12,085 nt of DNA from Promethearchaeota archaeon (GTDB lineage: Archaea > Asgardarchaeota > Heimdallarchaeia > Hodarchaeales > Hodarchaeaceae), in the NCBI GenBank assembly GCA_048938105.1, contig JBHLMN010000041.1:1-12085 (forward strand), read 5' to 3'. The notes beneath the pieces are model-generated. The model ran no database searches, had not been told where the DNA came from, and saw nothing but the letters and a program-made list of their open reading frames with translations. Of this stretch, positions 480 through 11,823 are shown in pieces. Made by a program: the position numbers and the translations under genes. The number at the start of each line of letters is the position of its first letter. Within the stretch, counting starts at the first letter, position 1.

Positions 480-686
480 ATGGATTATTCAGAAACCTTT
501 TTAGAAATGCTTCAGTTTCTTCAACTTACCTATCAAAAGTTCCCAAAGTTTATGATAGAAATCATGGCGGAAAATTATAGCATTCCTCGTAAAGAAATTA
601 AACCACTTATACATAAATTTAGAAAAGAGGGAATTTTACTTATATTGAAAAATGAGGGCTACACGTTTACCTTAAATGGAGTTTAA
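480..686 (+). CDS. small hypothetical protein, possibly winged-helix-like
   Basis: 68 aa with an amphipathic helix pattern ending in 'LIHKFRKEGILLILKNEGYTFTL' (helix + GxL + beta-hairpin, as in wHTH). Divergent from 62..289 with a TATA-like TTTATATATA at ~413-422. Confidence 0.65.
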   Translation: MDYSETFLEMLQFLQLTYQKFPKFMIEIMAENYSIPRKEIKPLIHKFRKEGILLILKNEGYTFTLNGV

Positions 687-996
687 AATTTTTCATATTT
701 ACCGTCTTTAATCTTTTTTTTATCTCCAGCTTTCTCTTTGGGAATAATAACGTTTAAACTTCGGGTAAAAGTGGTTTGAGCTGTCTTTCTTTTTAGGTTC
801 CTTTTATCTTTGAAATTATCTACGAACCCTTTTGATTCATTTGATTCTTTATCCTTTCCTTGTGGTGCAAAAAATTGCTGGGCATTAATAAATTGAAATC
901 CGCATCGTTCAGCAAACGTTTGATCGGTTTTCATATCTCCGACCATAATACATTGAGAAGGATCAAGGTGATACTTTTCAATAAATTGAACTCCCA
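683..996 (-). pseudogene. 3' fragment of a polynucleotide kinase/phosphatase (HAD C-terminal part) plus a Lys-rich tail
   Basis: GVQFIEKYHLDPSQCIMVGDMKTDQTFAERCGFQFINAQQFFAPQGK is near-identical to the C-terminus of 5768..6751. It lacks the kinase domain and the DxDGT nucleophile motif. The ORF track calls 683..1009, but homology stops at 996. Confidence 0.8.
854..996. repeat. 143-bp direct repeat, copy 1 (PNKP 3' end)
   Basis: Manual ungapped alignment with 5798..5940 gives 13 mismatches in 143 nt (~91% identity). Confidence 0.95.
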
Positions 997-1310
997 AGTA
1001 TTCAACCATACCAACGATACTGATTACTATTTTTTTGCTGTGCGAGATGTTCAGGATAATCCAGTCCTAATGATGTTGAAAATTTATCATCCCCTCATGA
1101 ATTTTGAATTGGTTTCGCATTCTGAAGCCCAGAGAAGTGAATTATTTGATTTTGAACATCTCGCTTTTCTTAAAAGGAAAGATCCTCCCCTCTGTGAAGC
1201 TTAAGACCACGACTCCCACTTATATCATAGAACCTTTTCAGGTAGGAGTCGCTTTTTAAAAGTATACTAAAACCTTCTCTCATCCTTAGATAGTCCAGTC
1301 CAGTAAAATG

Positions 1311-1333: not shown

Positions 1334-4300
1334 TTAAGTATTTTTTATTCTAATTTTTTTAATTAGCATTATTGAGATAATTCCTAATAAACCTAAAATG
1401 TAAAGAATATTATATCCCAGAATACTTTCCTCTTTAAGTCTAGGATAATCATTAGGATCTAATGGATCTGTTCCTCTCTCTACTTCATCTCCATCATTCC
1501 ATCCATCACCATCTGTGTCTTGTAAATGAGGATTTGTATTATGTAAAAATTCTTGATAGTTAGTTAACCCATCATTATCAGGATCAAGAGAAGAGTCGTC
1601 ATGAAATAGGTCTAATCCATATTGATATTCATAGCCATCATACATCCCATCACCATCAGTATCTGGATTGTTTGCATAAGTTCCTAGTAAATATTCTTGA
1701 ATATTTAATAGGCCATCATTGTCAAGGTCAAGCAAGGAATCATCATATAATGGATTTAGACCATTATTTACTTCGTATCCATCCAACATTCCATCAAAAT
1801 CAGTGTCATTCAATCTTGGATCTGTAATACCATAAAATTCTTCATAATCAGTCAACCCATCAAAATCGGTATCTATTTCCCTTGGGTTAATTCCTTCTCT
1901 TATTTCTAGAATATCTGGTAATCCATCACCATCGTAATCACCATAGATTTCTTGAAAGATGATAATATCATAACCTTCGATCTCTGCGAAAATCTCATAA
2001 CCAGTTATGGTCTTGTTTTCCTCTAGTTGGATTGAGCCTGAATAAAATTCGAATCCCGAATAGGTAAGAGTAGATAAAGTCAGATCTTCTACTTTCATTA
2101 CTATGTTATCGGTGACAGAACAAATACTTATAGTTAAAGAATTTAGCAAACCATGCCCATACAAATAAAATGAATAATTAAGATAATTACCAGATACATC
2201 TAATGATAGAGATCCAAAAGTAGGATATAATACGGATTCACCTGAAATCTGATCAGATTCTTGTGGATGAGAATCACCTCCAGAATATTGATAAGTATTG
2301 GTGTAGACAAAAGGATATTGCTCCTCCAATGATATAACGCCATCACCATTTGAATCAACAGCACTGCCAAATGAATTAAGGAAGAAGTAAGTAAAAATTC
2401 CATGAGCGAATGTTGGTGTCTCATAACATAATTCATCATCCATGCAGGAAGTCATAATATATCTTCCTGTAGCCTGACATTCTGCAATCATACCTCCACT
2501 GTAACAACAATCAATAATGATATATTTCTCTGAACATGGTAAGTTATCAAGCCTGTATTCTAGAACATAATCAAAATAACAATGAGACGGATTAAAGGGA
2601 TTAATAGAATCATAAGGACACAAATATTCTCCCCAGTCGATATGATCTCCTCCATGTCCGGAAAAGAAGAAGAAAAATACATCTTCTGGATTTATTCGCC
2701 AATATATATATGAAAAAGCATTATTTATATTACTATTTGTAGCATTAGAATCTACCAAAAAAATAATATTTTCTGAATTATAATTGCATTCAGATGTTAG
2801 AAAGTTATAGATCGATTCTGCGTCATCTCTACTGTAATCCAAATCGTAATCAGTGCCAGGATAATCTTCTACTCCAATTACAATAGCATATGCGTTTCTG
2901 GGGACAAGGACGTTATAATCCTTAACAACAATAACTTCATCATAAGCAGTATTACCCAAGGAATCGTTTACATAGAATCTAATCAGAACTGATCCATTTT
3001 CACAAAAATCCCATGCTACTTGATCTATTCTGCCAAAAGTATCGGAAACAGTATAATTATCCCCGGAATTTAAGGAATACCATATACTATCTACACTCTC
3101 CTCGTCTACGGTAATGTCATAAAATAGGTTTAATGTATAATTTCCATAGATTTGATACTGAATCGGTAAATTTATACTAATAGTTGGACTAACGGTATCT
3201 TTATTAACAGATACACTTTTTTCTAATTTTATGACTGATAAATAATCAGCATAAAATGTTATTTTAACAACGCCATCATTTAGCAAATCCCATGCCGTCT
3301 CATTAATCTTGCCTATTGGATTCGTAATAGAGTAATTTCGACCATCATTTAGAGAGTATTTCATCTCATATAATCCCCAATCTAGGAGTGAGATGTTATA
3401 GTAAGGCGCAATTGAGCCAAAATATTGGTCTGCAAAAGGTTCATTGATATCAATAGCAAGGTACTTCATGACATAGACTACATTATGAGCAGTGTTCCCT
3501 ACTGAGTTATTTGCATAAAATGTAATTTTAATACTACTACTCTCATATAAATCCCATCCCAATTGATCGATCTTACCCGTATTGCCTATGAAAAAAAAGG
3601 GACCTGATTCATTTAAGAAATACCAAGATGTATCTAAATCAACATCATAGATAGAGATGTTAAAATCTGGTGAATTAGCTCCAAAAATCTGATTATTTAA
3701 CGGATCATAAATAGTAATCAAAGGCAAATTAATATCTTTCTGAACTATGACTTCACTCATACCGATATTGCTAGATGAGTCATTAACATAGAACTTAATT
3801 GAAACCGTCCCATTACTGCATGATTCCCAAGCAGATTGATTTATAACTCCTTGAGTGGTAGTAAATGAATAATTCATTCCATCATTTAATGAATAATAAC
3901 ATTGATTTAATATCCCTATATATATTTTCATAGCAATATTGTATTCTGGCGCATTTATCCCATAAAACTTATTCTGAGAAGGAGTATTAATAGAAATACG
4001 AGGGGGAGGATTATATTTTAAGAGAAATATTTCATCTTTCCATTCAGGAGCTTCCAGTTGACCAGTAAGATATATACTTCCCTCTGAATCGAACGCAACT
4101 CCACTAGCCCAATCATCTCCAGAGCCACCCCAAGTAATATTCCATAAATAATTCCCCGAACTATTAAACTTTACCACTACTGCATCATTATACGCATCTC
4201 CTGCAACATAAATATTGCCAAATGAATCTCTTGCTAAATATTCTCCCCCAGTAGAGCCGTCCAACCATGTTTTAACCCATAACTGATCCCCATTGCTATT

Positions 4301-5200
4301 ATACTTAGCTAAGAATATCCTAGAGGTATAATATCTGTAAGCAGTACCAGTGACATAAATATCACCATTATTGTCAATGATGGTAGATGTTGCCCATGTA
4401 GAGTCTTCTACTCTCAAATCCCATGTACGACTCCATTCCGTACCACCAGTAGAATTGAATTTTACTATAACCATTTCTAGATTAGATAAATAGTTAGACC
4501 CAACAACATAAATATTGTCAAGAGTATCAAGTGCAACATCAAAACCTCGATTTAGCTGATTGTTGCCCCAGGTTTGATTCCATAGTTGGGTACCTGACTT
4601 ATCAAATTTAACCACACATATATCAAAATCACCTGCTCCAAAACTACGAGTCTCCCCCGTAATGACTAAATTCTCTGAAGAATCTAATGCTATAGAACTA
4701 CCAGATTCAATATTACTACCTCCCCATGTTATATTCCATATCAGCGAACCCAAATGGTCGAACTTAAGAAGACAAATATCACTGCTACCTACTGAGTAAC
4801 TATTGGTACTCCCTACAACATATACATTACCTTCTGAATCAGTAATAACATCATGAGCTAAATCCCGTTCAGGCCCTCCCCAACTAATATTCCACTGCTT
4901 CACTCCATACTTATTAAACTTAAATAAAAACATATCATAATTATCTACATTTGTATAGAAACCTGCATAATATATATTATCATTCTTATCTACTGATATG
5001 CCCACTGAACAATCATTCATTTCAGTTTCCCAAGTAAAATTCCACTCAGGTTCTACTGGATCATGAAAAGCTGATGTAGATGGTTCTTTATAGTCCTGAT
5101 CTAATAAATTGAATTTTCTTGGCGGGATATAAATGTTAAAGAGCAACAAAATAAAAAGAAGAAATAATATCTTTCTAATTTTCATAAATTTAAACATCAA
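1334..5200 (-). CDS. secreted, C-terminally anchored multidomain protein: SBBP-type beta-propeller repeats + ~4 Ig-like repeats + caspase-family peptidase C14 domain + DxDxDG Ca-binding repeats + Loki-CTERM-like anchor
   Basis: N-terminal basic+hydrophobic signal peptide (the real start may be ATG 5197 or 5185). Repeats of 'D..GNIYV.G...D....K(F/Y)NS.G...W..TWGG' at ~4010-5050. ~90-aa repeats 'P.I.I..P...(W)YSLN.G...I.Q.AW...NG...I.FY.N.S.GN' at ~2920-4010. C14 motifs YAIVIG, FFFFSGHG (His ~2655) and IIIDCCYSG (Cys ~2505). Tandem DTDGDG/DxDxDGL.D..E repeats at ~1445-1940. C-terminus ILGYNILYILGLLGIISIMLIKKIRIK. Confidence 0.9.
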   Translation of the reverse strand: MMFKFMKIRKILFLLFILLLFNIYIPPRKFNLLDQDYKEPSTSAFHDPVEPEWNFTWETEMNDCSVGISVDKNDNIYYAGFYTNVDNYDMFLFKFNKYGVKQWNISWGGPERDLAHDVITDSEGNVYVVGSTNSYSVGSSDICLLKFDHLGSLIWNITWGGSNIESGSSIALDSSENLVITGETRSFGAGDFDICVVKFDKSGTQLWNQTWGNNQLNRGFDVALDTLDNIYVVGSNYLSNLEMVIVKFNSTGGTEWSRTWDLRVEDSTWATSTIIDNNGDIYVTGTAYRYYTSRIFLAKYNSNGDQLWVKTWLDGSTGGEYLARDSFGNIYVAGDAYNDAVVVKFNSSGNYLWNITWGGSGDDWASGVAFDSEGSIYLTGQLEAPEWKDEIFLLKYNPPPRISINTPSQNKFYGINAPEYNIAMKIYIGILNQCYYSLNDGMNYSFTTTQGVINQSAWESCSNGTVSIKFYVNDSSSNIGMSEVIVQKDINLPLITIYDPLNNQIFGANSPDFNISIYDVDLDTSWYFLNESGPFFFIGNTGKIDQLGWDLYESSSIKITFYANNSVGNTAHNVVYVMKYLAIDINEPFADQYFGSIAPYYNISLLDWGLYEMKYSLNDGRNYSITNPIGKINETAWDLLNDGVVKITFYADYLSVIKLEKSVSVNKDTVSPTISINLPIQYQIYGNYTLNLFYDITVDEESVDSIWYSLNSGDNYTVSDTFGRIDQVAWDFCENGSVLIRFYVNDSLGNTAYDEVIVVKDYNVLVPRNAYAIVIGVEDYPGTDYDLDYSRDDAESIYNFLTSECNYNSENIIFLVDSNATNSNINNAFSYIYWRINPEDVFFFFFSGHGGDHIDWGEYLCPYDSINPFNPSHCYFDYVLEYRLDNLPCSEKYIIIDCCYSGGMIAECQATGRYIMTSCMDDELCYETPTFAHGIFTYFFLNSFGSAVDSNGDGVISLEEQYPFVYTNTYQYSGGDSHPQESDQISGESVLYPTFGSLSLDVSGNYLNYSFYLYGHGLLNSLTISICSVTDNIVMKVEDLTLSTLTYSGFEFYSGSIQLEENKTITGYEIFAEIEGYDIIIFQEIYGDYDGDGLPDILEIREGINPREIDTDFDGLTDYEEFYGITDPRLNDTDFDGMLDGYEVNNGLNPLYDDSLLDLDNDGLLNIQEYLLGTYANNPDTDGDGMYDGYEYQYGLDLFHDDSSLDPDNDGLTNYQEFLHNTNPHLQDTDGDGWNDGDEVERGTDPLDPNDYPRLKEESILGYNILYILGLLGIISIMLIKKIRIKNT

Positions 5201-5315: not shown

Positions 5316-5633
5316 TCAACTTTTATATTTCTCTAACTTATCTTTTGGAACTTCTACTATCTCTCCTGTATCGGTTTCAAGATATTCTTTAGTCCTATCA
5401 TCATCGCTGTAAAAGGTAAAGTGTGCCTTAATTGCCACATCCATATCATCGGTATAAAATTCGGCATAATCGTCCCCGATCCCACTATCGGGATTCAATT
5501 TAACTCCCATTACTTTCCATTCTTTAAACATCTCCGCTAACCCTTCAAACGTCTTAATAAAATCGTCAATAGAACCAGCGTTTGAAGTAATCCACTTGTT
5601 CCGCCAAGAGGAAACATATCTAATTTTTCCCAT
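5316..5633 (-). CDS. hypothetical acidic protein (WRNKW...SIDD...DDYA motif)
   Basis: 105-aa ORF with protein-like composition; GAGGT SD at 5645-5641, 7 nt before the ATG. Confidence 0.8.
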   Translation of the reverse strand: MGKIRYVSSWRNKWITSNAGSIDDFIKTFEGLAEMFKEWKVMGVKLNPDSGIGDDYAEFYTDDMDVAIKAHFTFYSDDDRTKEYLETDTGEIVEVPKDKLEKYKS

Positions 5634-5767: not shown

Positions 5768-6751
5768 TTATACATCGAAATTTGAATGATTTAAAATCTT
5801 TCCTTTTGGAGTAAAAAATTTATGGGCATTAACAAATTGAAACCCGCACCGTTCAGCAAAGGTTTGATCGGTTTTCATATCTCCGACCATAATACATTGC
5901 GACGGATCAAGGTTATATTTTTCAATAAATTGAACTCCCATACCCGGTATTGGCTTTCTGCAATAACATACTTGAGGATATGCCTGATGAGGACAAAATA
6001 AATAATCAAGATTTATTCCAAGCATTTCATGAGTATTTTCAAAACATTGTTCTGCCTGTTCGAGGGTAAAGACTCCTCTGACAATAAAGGATTGATTGGA
6101 CACTCCCAATAAAAGATAACCTTTCTCTTGGTAATTTTTTAAGACTTTTGTTCTATTAGGGAGAATTTCAATATCTTCGGGAGTAACAGGATACTTTTCA
6201 CCAGATTTGGTCTTTCGAATGGTTCCATCGTAATCTAAAAGAATGGCTTTATTCGTATAAATCTCTTTATCCATTTTTCGCGTGAATGGTACTTTTTCGA
6301 CTTCCTGAAATCCCTCTTGGAGTGTTGGTTTCTCAAACGCTTTTCGGTACCGATAAATCGCCGCAGGAGAATAGATACCGATATCTTTGGATACTTTTAT
6401 TTCTTCAGGCGGTAATAATTTTCCATATGTATCAATCATTCTCTTGGAAGCATTATAGAGCGCATCTCCCACCTCTATATCAATCCATTTACATTCAATC
6501 TTAAAATTATTATTATGAGCCCATTTAACAACAGAACTTCGTGATTTTATTGTAGGATAGGTATTATCCATAATAAATTTGTTAACCTTCTCACTTTTAT
6601 ACAACCGATCTAAATGGTTTACTAGTCCGTCTAAAGATCCCCCCATTTCATCTCGATTTAATCGATGATACCCTTGCTTTTCATATTCTTTTGCAATTAC
6701 TGTTTTTCCAGACGCAGGATATCCCATAATTACCAAAATTCTATTTTCCAT
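5768..6751 (-). CDS. pnkp: polynucleotide 5'-kinase / 3'-phosphatase (N-terminal P-loop kinase + C-terminal HAD-IIIA phosphatase)
   Basis: Walker A GYPASGKT and the PNKP-type kinase motifs LNRD, MDNTYP and YRKAFEKPTLQEGF. HAD motif I LLDYDGT, motif II SNQ, motif III RKP, motif IV MVGD...D. Confidence 0.9.
   Translation of the reverse strand: MENRILVIMGYPASGKTVIAKEYEKQGYHRLNRDEMGGSLDGLVNHLDRLYKSEKVNKFIMDNTYPTIKSRSSVVKWAHNNNFKIECKWIDIEVGDALYNASKRMIDTYGKLLPPEEIKVSKDIGIYSPAAIYRYRKAFEKPTLQEGFQEVEKVPFTRKMDKEIYTNKAILLDYDGTIRKTKSGEKYPVTPEDIEILPNRTKVLKNYQEKGYLLLGVSNQSFIVRGVFTLEQAEQCFENTHEMLGINLDYLFCPHQAYPQVCYCRKPIPGMGVQFIEKYNLDPSQCIMVGDMKTDQTFAERCGFQFVNAHKFFTPKGKILNHSNFDV
5798..5940. repeat. 143-bp direct repeat, copy 2 (within the PNKP 3' end)
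   Basis: Aligns ungapped with 854..996 at an offset of 4944 nt, ~91% identity. Confidence 0.95.
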
Positions 6752-6850
6752 GGATCATCAGCCAATTTTAGTTTTGATAGATATGAATGATAAACAGATA
6801 TTATAATTAAAAACTTAAGAGGCAAAATAATTATTAGACATTCCAAGTGG

Positions 6851-8392
6851 TTAACTTTCTCTACTATCCTTTGAGCTATATAAATTCCATCCTCTCTTTA
6901 AAGTTCCTGTAGTTCCAACCATCTCACTTTTAACCAAGTCATCATAGATCTCCCACATTTGATCCTTGTCATTGGTAATACGCATTTGACGGTTTAGTGG
7001 ATCTTTTCGCTTTCTGCTATAATCTAGATGATAAATAACATATTCTGGATATTCATTGCTAAGACTACTCTTATTGGTTTTCCAAGCCATAAATTTGCGA
7101 ACCATATCATCGCCTCTCTCATAGACCACCCGAGCTAATAACGTCGATTTTTCTAATTCTATTTCAGGAACAGCCGAGATTTCTGGTACTTCGACCATTT
7201 CAGTTAATTGACTTATTCTCACATCGCTAATATTATCAACACTTTTATCCTCTCGGATGGGATTCCCTTCAACAAATCGAGGGGAGATTAAGGCAACAAA
7301 CGGTTCAAGTTTCACTAAGACCCACTTCTTCTCCTGATCATCATAGTGCAATACATTCTGATAGATCGGTTCCATATTTCTATCTGTTAAAATGTCGAGA
7401 TAATCAATTTGAGCTACAACTTCTGGCTTGACCATCTGATAGACACGTCCATCACTACGAGTAGGGGCTAAAAAACCTTCTGATTTTACAACTGTGAATT
7501 TTCTCCATAACTCCCTGCGTTGATCGTCAGTTAGACCTCCGCCTACACGAGTAAGGATATGATACATACCATTTGGCTTGCGTAGTGCGACTAATGTCGA
7601 GGCTACTTGATCTTTAGATAAGCGTGTTCCAGGTCTTCCGGCTGAAATTCCAATAATAGCGACGTCAATAGTATGTACAGGTTTAATTTTATAGCCCGCT
7701 CCTTCAGTACGCACCACGATCCCTTCATGTCCGTTTTTAACTACATGCTCCTCATAATATTCCTGCAGTTCTTTAGTCTCTTTGATTAACTTCGATACAA
7801 CCAAACTTGCTCTTCCTGATTCAGAAAAAAGAGATTTTAACTTATCAAATCGTTCCTTAAAGGGTTTTTCTAACCAACTCTGACCATTCAGCTCGATAAG
7901 GTCAAAAATTTTAAATCCAATACGGTCCAAATCTTCTTTACTTTGAGGGTTTCGACAGTAATGAATTAAATCATAGACTCGCAAACGTGCATTAAAATCA
8001 AGAGGATCAGTAGTAGTGCCGCACAATTCTCCTCCTATAATTACGGATTTAATCTTTTTCTTTTTCATAATAGCATTCAGATCTTCATTTACAGGAAGTC
8101 CTGTATAAATCCGATGTGTAGGCGAATTACTGAAAAAAGAATCATCATCTGCTTCATTATAATAAAAAATATTATATTCTCCATCCACTTTTACACTAGC
8201 ATACAATTCTTCTCCTGTAATCTTGGGAATTTTTTCAACTCGCCAAGGAATTAACCGTTGACATACAGTTTTCTTATAATTATCAACTTTCTGAATCAAT
8301 TCCATATAAGGTAGTGTGTTTGGTTTTCCTCGTATATAGGAACCAAAGGAATTTTCAATCAGGTCTTCGGATAAATTAATCTTCTTCTTCAC
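6851..8392 (-). CDS. ATP-dependent DNA ligase (NTase + OB domains) with an extra C-terminal WGR-like domain
   Basis: Motif I KVDG (Lys68), III GGEL, IIIa FKIFDLI, IV EGIVVR, V YKIKP. OB domain: TIDVAIIG...TRVGGGL...PEVVAQIDY...SPRF...IREDK (motif VI). GTG start overlaps the upstream gene by 17 nt. Confidence 0.9.
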   Translation of the reverse strand: MKKKINLSEDLIENSFGSYIRGKPNTLPYMELIQKVDNYKKTVCQRLIPWRVEKIPKITGEELYASVKVDGEYNIFYYNEADDDSFFSNSPTHRIYTGLPVNEDLNAIMKKKKIKSVIIGGELCGTTTDPLDFNARLRVYDLIHYCRNPQSKEDLDRIGFKIFDLIELNGQSWLEKPFKERFDKLKSLFSESGRASLVVSKLIKETKELQEYYEEHVVKNGHEGIVVRTEGAGYKIKPVHTIDVAIIGISAGRPGTRLSKDQVASTLVALRKPNGMYHILTRVGGGLTDDQRRELWRKFTVVKSEGFLAPTRSDGRVYQMVKPEVVAQIDYLDILTDRNMEPIYQNVLHYDDQEKKWVLVKLEPFVALISPRFVEGNPIREDKSVDNISDVRISQLTEMVEVPEISAVPEIELEKSTLLARVVYERGDDMVRKFMAWKTNKSSLSNEYPEYVIYHLDYSRKRKDPLNRQMRITNDKDQMWEIYDDLVKSEMVGTTGTLKRGWNLYSSKDSRES

Positions 8393-9098
8393 CTACGTCT
8401 GGAATTAAGGATTCTGGGAGCTTCAATTCCTGATCAGATAGATGAAGAATTAAAGCATATTTGTCATCTTTCACACGTCCTTCAAGAAATGCTCTCGGAA
8501 ATTTTCTCCCCCCATCATACAATACTAATGGTTCTCTTTTTTTCGTTTCGGGATTAAAAGTATCAATACGGGCAAATTTATTCTCCTTTTGCAGTCTTTC
8601 AGCGAGTTCATACAGAAATTTGTAGGTTACCCCATTATTATGAACAATATAGTAACTCTTACGAAAGACATAGGTTAGCATTAACATATGTGTATCTACT
8701 AACTCATCGGTGATTTTTACTGGAAGTTCAGTATTAATATTTCCTATGGTACGTAGATGAGGTCTTTCTTTTATAGAACCATCTGCAAGGTGTAACACAT
8801 CAAACATAGTATAATTATAAACGGGGTCATAGTGCTCCCCAACGGTTATCCGATTAGTCTTTTTTACTTTTTTTCCAGCTAGTTCAGTATCAATATCAAT
8901 ATCAGATTCTTTCAAGTGGCTAGCGAGATTTTCTTTTTCCAACAAAATTTCATCCCGTAGATCTACATCAAACTTTATGTATCGCTGATAGGTTGCTCTT
9001 TCACCCTCAGGAGATACATGATACTGCTTTTGAGGTCGATGAGTGGGAATTAGTTCCAGTTCAGCATCAATATTTTCATGGGCTAAATGAATCTTCAC
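8376..9098 (-). CDS. hypothetical protein, putative divergent Ku-like DNA-end-binding subunit B
   Basis: 240 aa. The segment PVKITDELVDTHMLMLTYVFRKSYYIVHNNGVTYKFLYELAERLQKENKFAR...PRAFLEGRVKDDKYALILHL follows the Ku core pattern as recalled (strand, 'f.kpYYl', 'Y.lL.~aL...~k.a', beta-hairpin). The ORF is solid; the Ku call is pattern-based. Confidence 0.6.
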   Translation of the reverse strand: MKIHLAHENIDAELELIPTHRPQKQYHVSPEGERATYQRYIKFDVDLRDEILLEKENLASHLKESDIDIDTELAGKKVKKTNRITVGEHYDPVYNYTMFDVLHLADGSIKERPHLRTIGNINTELPVKITDELVDTHMLMLTYVFRKSYYIVHNNGVTYKFLYELAERLQKENKFARIDTFNPETKKREPLVLYDGGRKFPRAFLEGRVKDDKYALILHLSDQELKLPESLIPDVGEEED

Positions 9099-9105
9099 CT
9101 TCTAA

Positions 9106-9112
9106 TCACCTC
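9106..9112 (-). promoter_or_regulatory. Shine-Dalgarno GAGGTGA overlapping the upstream stop codon
   Basis: The minus strand reads ATA TGG TGA GGTGA TTAGAAG GTG AAG. The SD is built into the stop of 9111..9722, 7 nt before the GTG at 9098. Confidence 0.7.
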
Positions 9113-9722
9113 ACCATATCTCAAAGGCAATTTCCTCTTCCAATTCTTCTTCTATATCACTATAAAGAATCTCACTGGGGCTAACCATGATAGGTTCAGC
9201 ATACTCTCCAATTGCTACATATAATACTTCATTTTTAGGAAGAAGAATTGCATCTCTGGGGGTTGCGGTATCATAATACGCATACGTGAATCGATATAAC
9301 TTTCCCTGTTCTAAGAGCTTTTCACATACGGAATATAAGCGATTTAGATCGCTTGTCTGTTCCGAAGTGAGGATATAGGTTCGTTCAATTACATAACCAA
9401 AATAATCATCTATCGAGATTGTCTTGGACAATTTAACTGGTTCCTTATATATGGATCGAGTAATAGGAATTGCTTTATCTTCAGAATCTACTAATAAGGT
9501 CTTGGATAAATAAGTGCCATTAATATCAATATAATTTGCTCCAATTCCCTTATAGGGAAGAATTTGAGTACCATCTAGGGTAAGATTTGCCTGTTGATAA
9601 ACCGTACCATCCTCACCGCGTTTTTCAACGATACTCTTTCCATATAAATCATCCCTTGAGAATGTTTTTAGGATCACAGGGATCTCTACATCTTTATAGC
9701 GTAACGTTAATACCCTTGCCAT
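9111..9722 (-). CDS. hypothetical protein, putative divergent Ku-like DNA-end-binding subunit A with acidic C-terminal tail
   Basis: 203 aa. N-terminal 'VEIPVILK' resembles Ku 'VniPVkLy'. Core PVKLSKTISIDDYFGYVIERTYIL...LYSVCEKLLEQGKLYRFTYAY...RDAILLPKNEVLYV resembles the Ku barrel and is paralogous to the adjacent gene. Confidence 0.6.
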   Translation of the reverse strand: MARVLTLRYKDVEIPVILKTFSRDDLYGKSIVEKRGEDGTVYQQANLTLDGTQILPYKGIGANYIDINGTYLSKTLLVDSEDKAIPITRSIYKEPVKLSKTISIDDYFGYVIERTYILTSEQTSDLNRLYSVCEKLLEQGKLYRFTYAYYDTATPRDAILLPKNEVLYVAIGEYAEPIMVSPSEILYSDIEEELEEEIAFEIW

Positions 9723-10333: not shown

Positions 10334-10858
10334 TTAATCTGCCAATTCTTTTTTGATGGATGCGAGGAATAGGATTAGAAGCACTACATAATTCAGAGGA
10401 AATACCAAAAACCACGCTAACCTGTATGAAATTTGAAATAGTGCAATAAAAATAACAATGGCTATAGGGAAATCTAGCCAACCCCACTTATTTTCGATTA
10501 AGTAGATGCTATAAACTACTAAAAAAACACCAAATATATATACTGGAGTAACCAAAGTTGTATATAATCCGGTCCAGCCTCCTAAAAACCTAGTTCCTAA
10601 ATCCCACCACATTACCAGACAAGAGATTCCAATAATGATTGTACCAACCACAAAAATTATTATGCTTCTCTTTTTTACAAGTTCTATATTCCATCTCTGT
10701 TTTGGAGATATTGAAAAGCAAATTCCACCAATAATACAAGCTATACCTATATAAATATATATGTATGCATAGAAATGTATATAAAAAAATCCCAAAAGAT
10801 CTAATACTATTCCTACTATAATAAGAGCTAAACCAGCAATTTTACGATTTTCCTTCAA
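10334..10858 (-). CDS. hypothetical multi-pass membrane protein (~6 TM)
   Basis: 174 aa dominated by hydrophobic stretches separated by short basic loops; TTG start with an in-frame stop shortly upstream. Confidence 0.75.
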   Translation of the reverse strand: MKENRKIAGLALIIVGIVLDLLGFFYIHFYAYIYIYIGIACIIGGICFSISPKQRWNIELVKKRSIIIFVVGTIIIGISCLVMWWDLGTRFLGGWTGLYTTLVTPVYIFGVFLVVYSIYLIENKWGWLDFPIAIVIFIALFQISYRLAWFLVFPLNYVVLLILFLASIKKELAD

Positions 10859-11277: not shown

Positions 11278-11823
11278 GTGGAAAAATTAGGAATTATCCC
11301 AAACAGACCCAAACGGGTTATTATATTTGTAGACCATGCCAATATTTTCTATAATTTGCAAAAAAGAGATATTCGAATCGATTATCAAAAACTGAGACAG
11401 ATTGTGAGTAGAGACTCACATTTAGTGGGAGCTTTTGTATACCTTGGAGTGCCTGATAAGATCCCTATTGAAAAAGAAAATTTTATGAGATATATTGAAA
11501 AAGCAGGATATACCATCCAAAAAAGACCATTGAGCATGTTATCAGATGGTTCAACTAAACAAAAAAGAATTGATATTTTTATCTATAAAGATATGGTGGA
11601 GTTGGCAGAGGAAGATGCCTATGATAAAGCGGTGTTATTATCGGGAGATGGTGATTTTGTGGATGCGATAAAGCAACTAAAAGTGTTGAAAAAAAGGTTC
11701 GAAATATGGAGCTTTTGCAAATCCCTCTCCAAATTACTACGGAAAGAAGCAGGAGAGGACAATATCCACTATATCGATGACATTCTTGGTGAAATTAGCC
11801 AGAAGAAAAAAGAGGAAGAATAA
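11278..11823 (+). CDS. NYN domain protein (LabA/DUF88 family, PIN-like fold, putative RNase)
   Basis: Motifs IFVDHANIFY, KQKRID...DM and LLSGDGDF match the conserved acidic residues of NYN/LabA. GTG start with GAGGAGG/AGGTG upstream. Confidence 0.9.
   Translation: MEKLGIIPNRPKRVIIFVDHANIFYNLQKRDIRIDYQKLRQIVSRDSHLVGAFVYLGVPDKIPIEKENFMRYIEKAGYTIQKRPLSMLSDGSTKQKRIDIFIYKDMVELAEEDAYDKAVLLSGDGDFVDAIKQLKVLKKRFEIWSFCKSLSKLLRKEAGEDNIHYIDDILGEISQKKKEEE

Follow-up and report, generated by a model that had tools for sequence, protein, structure and literature searches.

The window analysed here, 12,085 bp long, is the entire contig C16 of a 5.85-Mb, 65-contig Asgard archaeal bin, and it carries four co-oriented genes on the minus strand: two for hypothetical proteins (A and B), one for an ATP-dependent DNA ligase and one for a polynucleotide kinase/3'-phosphatase (PNKP). 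According to the open reading frame (ORF) listing, gene A (9722..9111) codes for 203 amino acids from an ATG start, gene B (9098..8376) for 240 amino acids from a GTG start, the ligase gene (8392..6851) for 513 amino acids from a GTG start, and the PNKP gene (6751..5768) for 327 amino acids from an ATG start. A preliminary description, made from the sequence alone, had read these genes as a candidate and possibly undescribed double-strand-break (DSB) repair operon resembling non-homologous end joining (NHEJ), with two Ku-like paralogs, a stand-alone ligase, PNKP and a eukaryote-like logic that might bear on how NHEJ arose in eukaryotes. The listing confirmed the organization it gave: genes A and B are separated by 12 nt, B overlaps the ligase gene by 17 nt, and a 99-nt spacer (6752..6850, minus strand) lies between the ligase and PNKP genes. 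As had also been noticed, the TGA stop codon of A falls within GGTGAGGTGA, a run that resembles a Shine-Dalgarno sequence and comes shortly before the GTG start of B. The N-termini of homologues are consistent with this start and with that of the ligase, also GTG. Since the spacer reads as AT-rich, with T-runs and a TATA-like stretch, co-transcription of PNKP with A, B and the ligase is uncertain, and PNKP may have its own promoter and be transcribed separately from this triad.

Searches of Pfam, NCBIfam, PHROG and PADLOC gave no match for A or B and, since neither PHROGs nor PADLOC recognized them, the cassette fits no catalogued defence system. Near homologues of the two proteins come almost all from Asgard bins labelled Promethearchaeota, Hodarchaeales, Thorarchaeota or Lokiarchaeota, and one homologue fragment bears the automatic UniRef name "Ku domain-containing protein". 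The Pfam family PF02735, which comprises bacterial Ku, Ku70 and Ku80, did not match A or B either; it was reached by two of 14 A homologues at E 0.003, under the cut-off, and by one of 81 at E 0.11. Alignment of A with B by hhalign gave a probability below 1% with shallow and deep alignments alike, and the term "paralogs" was therefore dropped as a sequence-level statement.

AlphaFold models built from the homologue alignments of each protein indicate that A and B share a Ku/SPOC-type beta-barrel core fold. The model of A (Ku-fold subunit 1) has its barrel core in residues 1-22 and 93-182, with an insert of about 70 amino acids (residues 23-92) where Ku has its bridge arms; in both proteins the insert at this place measures about 70-80 residues. 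The model of B reached a predicted local distance difference test (pLDDT) value of 79. When the models were compared with the PDB by Foldseek, which ranks by sequence and 3Di states together, the 50 best matches shown for A were all Ku or Ku-containing complexes (best 9vnq_A, E 1.4e-6), and so were the 50 shown for B (best 8v53_B, E 8e-7), with bacterial Ku first in both cases, followed by Ku80 and Ku70. An exhaustive VIA search aligned A with Bacillus subtilis Ku at Z 12.3 (101 amino acids, root-mean-square deviation (rmsd) 2.5) and with Mycobacterium tuberculosis Ku at Z 12.0, and B with M. tuberculosis Ku at Z 12.1 (163 aligned residues including the insert, rmsd 6.9) and with Ku80 at Z 11.6. 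The comparison with Ku and SPOC structures proposed in the preliminary description thus ranked Ku best for A and B, and of its "two Ku-like paralogs" the Ku-type folds stood, by Foldseek and VIA, while paralogy at the sequence level fell with the hhalign result.

Another comparison it had proposed, a multimer prediction of A with B, gave an ipSAE of 0.77 (0.78, 0.77 and 0.77 in the individual runs), against 0.00 for the best of three controls. This level is reached by 58 of 80 solved complexes and by 2 of 110 mismatched pairs, a calibration that is only rough for A and B since own alignments were used. At least 81% of the contacts were common to the runs, and the pLDDT of the partners was at least 75. 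A and B are accordingly predicted to pair with each other, through an interface formed by the inserts, in which residues 21-85 of A meet residues 15-42 and 78-105 of B. It is this interface, together with the inserts of 70-80 residues at the place of the Ku bridge, that points to Ku. Protein A ends in an acidic C-terminal tail (9114..9179, minus strand; ...EEEIAFEIW) that is conserved across the family: nearly every A has an acidic run followed by a conserved aromatic or hydrophobic terminus, which reads F[ED][VI]W in Asgard proteins and DF[SGD]M[FML] in bacterial ones, each after a run of D/E. This tail may be a candidate docking peptide.

The third gene encodes, as judged from its domains, a member of the ATP-dependent DNA ligase superfamily, with a predicted nucleotidyltransferase domain (7685-8230, minus strand; PF01068, 64.1 bits against a cut-off of 26.2, E 1.8e-17) and OB domain (7379-7615, minus strand; PF04679, 32.7 bits against a cut-off of 27.5, E 1e-7). 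The KxDG adenylation motif ("VKVDG") and a motif VI-like "IREDK" are readable in the translation. The closest solved relatives are archaeal DNA ligases, and the enzyme is the second ligase of the genome, a separate Lig1-like gene being located on contig C52. Pfam detected no polymerase (POL) or phosphoesterase (PE) domain and no N-terminal DNA-binding domain, and the NCBIfam LigD models remained far under their cut-offs; as PF01068, PF04679 and a C-terminal domain were all that was found, the view of a stand-alone ligase lacking POL and PE held. The C-terminal domain (residues 395-513; 6854..7210, minus strand) is specific to the cassette and has a WGR-like predicted structure. A jackhmmer search seeded with these residues found the domain, of about 110 residues, in 87 of 90 cassette ligases. 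An Atlas structure search gave template modelling (TM) scores of 0.56/0.69 to a cluster with WGR in 32% of its members and of 0.56/0.34 to a PARP-WGR cluster; none of 48 members of the domain matched Pfam WGR (PF05406) at E<=1, and its profile had no match in the PDB. Since the A tail and the ligase C-terminal domain are both nearly universal, a covariation test between them was uninformative.

The fourth gene is predicted from domains and motifs to encode a polynucleotide kinase/3'-phosphatase of the T4 Pnk type, with the kinase first, as the preliminary identification as PNKP had it. A P-loop 5'-kinase (6269-6751, minus strand) matched AAA_33 over residues 6-90, at 25.4 bits, just under the 27-bit cut-off, and it is followed by a HAD-type 3'-phosphatase (5825-6253, minus strand) that matched PF08645 (PNK3P) at 39.5 bits (cut-off 22, E 6e-10). 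The protein also matched TIGR01662 (80.5 bits, cut-off 44.6) and the polynucleotide kinase family phrog_505, and its translation contains the motifs GYPASGKT, DYDGT and GDMKTD. The kinase domain scored best against the eukaryotic PNKP model TIGR01663, at E 7e-27 and far under the cut-off of that model. One relative, P0288 (568 amino acids, 57% identical to the PNKP of the window), carries a fused BRCT domain.

The B profile was scanned against one genome per species (185,579 species), and 390 encoding stretches were obtained. Two of the best 80 belong to Promethearchaeota and the rest are bacterial, from Bacteroidota, Acidobacteriota, Planctomycetota, Myxococcota, Lentisphaerota, Verrucomicrobiota, Bacillota, Chloroflexota, Fidelibacterota and Thermodesulfobacteriota. 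An exhaustive hidden Markov model (HMM) search with the A profile produced 232 clusters at 50% identity, nearly all of about 200 amino acids. An ORF and HMM tally of 83 loci found the triad in 68, in the order A-B-ligase in 56 and ligase-A-B in 12, with intergenic gaps mostly of -20 to +20 nt; most of the remaining loci are cut by contig ends, and the gene order is therefore not due to chance. The order A-B-ligase is kept in all 11 other Asgard genomes that contain B. The core unit is A-B-ligase, and the neighbourhood survey supported the co-conservation on which the preliminary description had relied; its caveat that similar clusters of two genes and a ligase may exist in bacteria proved well founded, since the species scan showed them to be widespread there. 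A natural fusion was also found: P0110 (779 amino acids; L108, 5001-7340) joins a ligase 41% identical to that of the window, C-terminal domain included, to an A-type domain, and is followed by a gene for a B protein of 346 amino acids. L108 is a contig of 30.6 kb, and the fusion locus has no Pfam-annotated neighbours. No ordinary Ku (PF02735) was detected in the genome of the window or in the five bacterial carrier genomes checked.

Several further genes recur beside the cassette. In 13 bacterial loci a primase-polymerase of the AEP type (about 410 amino acids) lies directly 3' of the ligase, and in about six loci of Bacteroidota an 83-amino acid BRCT protein is encoded upstream of the cassette. 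Genomes of four Asgard species (G156, G159, G160 and G258) have genes for an Mre11-like phosphoesterase and a 902-amino acid Rad50-like ATPase directly upstream and co-oriented, a linkage also present in an assembly copy of one of them; the array Mre11-like, Rad50-like, A, B, ligase extends over 981-8235 of L086 and is likewise found in L109, L111, L112 and L119. Between Asgard species the Mre11-like and Rad50-like proteins are 42-70% identical. In L086 a gene for a 1494-amino acid SF1 helicase precedes the array. PNKP adjoins the cassette only in the window, downstream, and in the related metagenomic contigs L094 and L095, where a protein 73% identical to that of the window is encoded directly upstream of A-B-ligase. 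The array of the Asgard-type contig L094 (278-8418) comprises genes for an NAD-dependent ligase, a 628-amino acid protein, PNKP, A, B and the ATP-dependent ligase. The NAD-dependent enzyme is LigA-type and BRCT-bearing, so that this array holds two different DNA ligases; the 628-amino acid protein has HTH_11 as its only match (E 5.8e-5, under the cut-off). Every recurrent partner is a DNA-end or DSB enzyme, which is the chief reason for preferring DNA end joining to RNA repair.

The cassette was present in 12 of 399 Asgard genomes (3%), eight of the 12 in one family, and absent from the 20 congeneric species searched and from the 59 nearest relatives; PNKP was absent from the 39 nearest relatives of the window's genome. 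By count the cassette is mainly bacterial, and it is a rare accessory trait in Asgards. Maximum-likelihood analysis of 96 B proteins placed the Asgard sequences in one clade (SH-aLRT 100), on a long branch from the bacteria and nested in no bacterial phylum. The bacterial part of the tree largely tracked the phyla, with one change for Acidobacteriota and 14 for all 12 groups, against a minimum of 11, a pattern that fits mainly vertical descent with some transfer. A recent transfer from bacteria as the origin of the Asgard copies was rejected, since these form their own long-branched clade outside the bacterial phyla. As the tree has no assigned root, any ancient transfer between Asgards and bacteria may have gone in either direction.

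Other features of the window surround the operon. A direct repeat of 143 bp (family D1; 854..996, minus strand) duplicates the 3' end of the PNKP gene, being 91% identical to 5798-5940, and the pair spans a segment of 4.9 kb. The ORF 683-1009 (minus strand) keeps the ancestral Lys-rich C-terminal tail and is 74% identical to residues 271-378 of the 378-amino acid relative P0228; the intact PNKP has lost this Lys-rich tail, which its closest relatives carry, and terminates in a short new one. On account of this repeat and of the tail kept by the fragment, the segment looks like a 4.9-kb insertion into the 3' end of the PNKP gene. It contains the gene for a 1288-amino acid protein (1334-5200, minus strand) with SBBP beta-propeller repeats, a caspase-family Peptidase_C14 domain and bacterial TSP3 calcium-binding repeats, whose translation has apparently hydrophobic N- and C-terminal segments. 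Just 3' of the PNKP gene lies an ORF of 105 amino acids (5316-5633, minus strand) and upstream of the operon another of 174 amino acids (10334-10858, minus strand), both with no family match; the translation of the latter resembles a multi-pass membrane protein. A gene for a NYN-domain (LabA-like) nuclease is present at 11278-11823 on the plus strand (PF01936, E 6e-21), and it also matches a PADLOC NYN model from candidate defence systems.

Based on these results, we consider that the locus is probably a very divergent Ku-ligase end-joining module, with a two-subunit ring, a dedicated ligase and, here, an added PNKP. A and B would be two unlike Ku-fold subunits that interlock through their long barrel inserts, most likely as a heterodimeric ring, and this ring would thread onto DNA double-strand ends. 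The ligase, with its cassette-specific WGR-like C-terminal domain, would be the dedicated ATP-dependent DNA ligase of the ring, recruited to it possibly through the acidic, aromatic-ended tail of A. The T4-type PNKP would turn 5'-OH/3'-phosphate ends into ligatable 5'-phosphate/3'-OH ends, and other lineages would add other end-processing partners, which are Mre11/Rad50-like proteins in other Asgards and, in bacteria, either an AEP primase-polymerase or a small BRCT protein. A role of the module in DSB repair in vivo is what we infer from this scheme. Within the preliminary description, the proposal of a DSB-repair system is supported by the Ku folds, the predicted pairing, the ligase and PNKP, and its part on eukaryotic origins found no support (see below).

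Several observations count against this scheme. A sequence-level link of A and B to Ku appears to be absent, as profiles of A and B run against PDB sequences retrieved no Ku and only chance-level matches. The model of A has a pLDDT of only 58, with the insert 23-92 unmodelled in the monomer. SPOC domains came near Ku in the VIA search, with Z 9.5-9.8 against A and a maximum of 11.4 against B. Since solved Ku dimers were among the training data, the A+B prediction may owe part of its score to them, and homodimers are compatible with it. That the pair binds DNA ends, closes into a ring and stimulates ligation is predicted from folds and gene context. As for PNKP, its gene was missing beside the triad from all 11 other Asgard genomes, from the further Asgard contigs read and from the bacterial loci examined, and the 99-nt spacer in front of it may contain a terminator and a promoter. 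The Asgard lineage hosting the contig is uncertain as well, because a contig of 12 kb is the whole window, the bin (99% complete) has 7.25% contamination, and the composition is somewhat atypical: the GC content of the contig is 33.1%, against 35.1 +/- 1.6% genome-wide, and its tetranucleotide distance lies at the 93rd percentile, values that make it neither a clear outlier nor typical. The closest homologues are in another Asgard family. The rarity of the cassette in Asgards and the slightly atypical composition together argue for an accessory trait whose host within the Asgards is somewhat uncertain.

We also weighed whether the cassette acts for mobile elements and not for the host cell, and protects, circularises or joins the linear ends of phages, plasmids or integrative elements, or counters host nucleases. 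Phage Mu Gam and mycobacteriophage Ku genes are models for such end protection. The patchy spread in both domains of life (in Asgards, the 12 of 399 genomes and the absence from all 20 congeners), a bacterial copy among element-type genes (L003, with DnaN, RadC, DUF3846 and PcfK-like genes) and, in the window, a short and slightly atypical contig with the scar of a 4.9-kb insertion and a PADLOC-matching NYN nuclease gene would suit this role. It is nonetheless unlikely: the B profile found no relative in 2.9 million viral contigs (the back-translated patterns used may miss some), PHROGs had no match for A or B, many copies lie amid housekeeping genes on long chromosomal contigs (L088, of 213 kb; L062, a 4.85-Mb chromosome), and the near-phylum pattern of the B tree, with 14 changes against a minimum of 11, agrees with descent that was mainly vertical.

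The barrel folds themselves suggest another reading, in which A and B are SPOC-type adaptors that scaffold the ligase and PNKP onto other machinery and do not encircle DNA. SPOC domains are protein-binding barrels of the same fold as Ku. With Z values of 8-11.4 for SPOC (PHF3, FPA, SPOCD1, RBM15, SHARP) and INTS13/14 barrels, against 12 for Ku, the barrel alone does not discriminate, and the missing sequence match to the Ku family would agree with adaptors. The features outside the barrel core make this reading quite improbable, since both proteins have at the Ku bridge place the insert of 70-80 residues that SPOC domains lack, B aligns over 163 residues with Ku and over about 110 with SPOC, and the predicted dimer interface passes through the inserts, as in Ku. 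In addition, the Foldseek matches shown, 50 per protein, comprised only Ku or Ku-containing complexes, and the operon partner is a DNA ligase, as with Ku.

T4 Pnk-Rnl and bacterial Pnkp-Hen1 are RNA repair systems, and T4-type PNKP is the classic healing enzyme of RNA repair. By analogy, PNKP could heal and the ligase seal cleaved tRNA or rRNA, with the Ku-fold pair binding structured RNA; the ligase does match Pfam RNA_ligase (E 2.7e-6, 28 bits against a 27-bit cut-off), and yeast Ku bound to TLC1 RNA (PDB 5y58) is among the Foldseek matches of A. We hold RNA repair to be very improbable, given that the ligase has a DNA-ligase OB domain and DNA ligases as its closest solved relatives, that its genomic partners are Mre11/Rad50-like proteins, AEP primase-polymerase, BRCT protein and, in L094, an NAD-dependent DNA ligase, and that nearly all copies of the cassette lack PNKP.

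The preliminary description had seen in the locus a eukaryote-like logic bearing on the origin of eukaryotic NHEJ, and this part was not supported by the comparison. A and B have no vWA, SAP or Ku80-CTD domain, the Ku-barrel alignments spanning nearly their whole chains of 203 and 240 amino acids, and their structural scores show no preference for Ku70/80 over bacterial Ku. PF02735 unites bacterial Ku, Ku70 and Ku80, and A and B fail it; A and B are more distant from Ku70/80 than ordinary bacterial Ku is. The split between A and B is older than the Asgard-bacteria divide of the family and, being common to Asgards and bacteria, it is independent of the Ku70/Ku80 duplication. The cassette occurs in hundreds of bacterial species, against the few Asgard genomes and none of the 20 congeners, and PNKP, in T4 Pnk order, is tied to it only in the window and in L094/L095. 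That the Asgard cassette is the direct forerunner of eukaryotic Ku70/Ku80-Lig4-PNKP, as the two unlike Ku-fold subunits predicted to pair, the single supported Asgard clade (SH-aLRT 100) outside all bacterial phyla and the links to Mre11/Rad50-like genes or PNKP might suggest, is improbable in the extreme in view of the failed family match, structural scores with no preference for Ku70/80, the missing vWA, SAP and Ku80 C-terminal domains, an A/B split that predates the Asgard-bacteria divide and so is not the eukaryotic duplication, the 3% of Asgard genomes searched that carry the cassette, a ligase with no Lig4 architecture and a PNKP domain order opposite to that of the eukaryotic enzyme. 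We give as little credence to an ancient Asgard DSB module in which a heterodimeric Ku-like ring and a ligase went with Mre11/Rad50 and in some cases with PNKP, and whose ring was the sister or source of Ku70/Ku80; if it were true, heterodimeric Ku would be pre-eukaryotic and not the product of a duplication in the eukaryotic stem.

Among known systems, the divergent Ku-ligase module proposed here can be compared first with NHEJ by a Ku homodimer and LigD (M. tuberculosis, B. subtilis YkoV/YkoU, Methanocella paludicola). In both cases a Ku-fold protein is encoded beside an ATP-dependent ligase, bacterial Ku is the best structural match of A and B, and separate end-processing genes occur in some lineages, as does the AEP polymerase gene after the ligase gene in the 13 bacterial loci. 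The two differ in that LigD systems have one Ku subunit and the cassette two unlike subunits, neither in the Ku Pfam family; LigD has fused POL and PE, whereas the cassette ligase lacks both and has the WGR-like C-terminal domain instead; the tail is basic and Lys-rich in many bacterial Ku proteins, whereas that of A is acidic with an aromatic end; and ends are healed by the LigD phosphoesterase, a role that PNKP would fill in the window. Ku3 and Ku4 of Sinorhizobium meliloti are recognisable ordinary members of the Ku family that work with a LigD. The two ku genes of this Ku3-Ku4/LigD4 system are co-maintained and genetically required together, and the authors proposed that the proteins form a heterodimer of the eukaryotic kind (Dupuy et al., NAR 2019, PMC6379672). 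In contrast, Ku sequence models do not detect A and B, which show no detectable similarity to each other and are paired with a different ligase. Heterodimeric Ku-like rings seem to have evolved more than once, if the genetically inferred Ku3-Ku4 pair (PMC6379672) is considered beside the one predicted here.

The eukaryotic Ku70/Ku80-Lig4-XRCC4-PNKP system resembles the cassette in three respects: unlike Ku-fold subunits form a heterodimer (in the cassette by prediction), an ATP-dependent ligase is dedicated to the pathway, and a 5'-kinase/3'-phosphatase is present for dirty ends. However, the cassette has no vWA, SAP, Ku80-CTD or BRCT-bearing Lig4 architecture, no XRCC4/XLF-like gene is in view at the locus of the window, its PNKP has the reversed domain order and no FHA domain, and the family is mainly bacterial. 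Phage T4 Pnk shares with the PNKP of the window a P-loop 5'-kinase at the N-terminus and a HAD-type 3'-phosphatase at the C-terminus; the gene of the window differs in lying beside a triad of Ku-like and DNA ligase genes and not beside an RNA ligase gene.

Surveys of prokaryotic NHEJ are domain-based and count Ku by sequence family (PMC7719229, PMC11936186), and the cassette is invisible to them for that reason. No account of A-B-ligase was found in the literature searched, a search whose coverage excluded most subscription journals; the cassette has probably not been described so far as a DNA break-joining system, in agreement with the preliminary description. It occurs in several hundred species, among them gut and rumen Bacteroidota, soil Acidobacteriota, Planctomycetota, Myxococcota and a few Asgard archaea. 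If it joins ends, the map of microbes capable of template-free break repair would change, which would matter for mutagenesis, for the way foreign DNA is acquired and for how CRISPR editing turns out. It would also mean that a Ku ring of two different subunits arose independently of the eukaryotic one, and PNKP in place of the LigD phosphoesterase would be, in the window, a distinct solution for dirty ends. The cassette would in that case also offer a compact end-healing and end-joining kit of three or four proteins for biochemistry and genome engineering.

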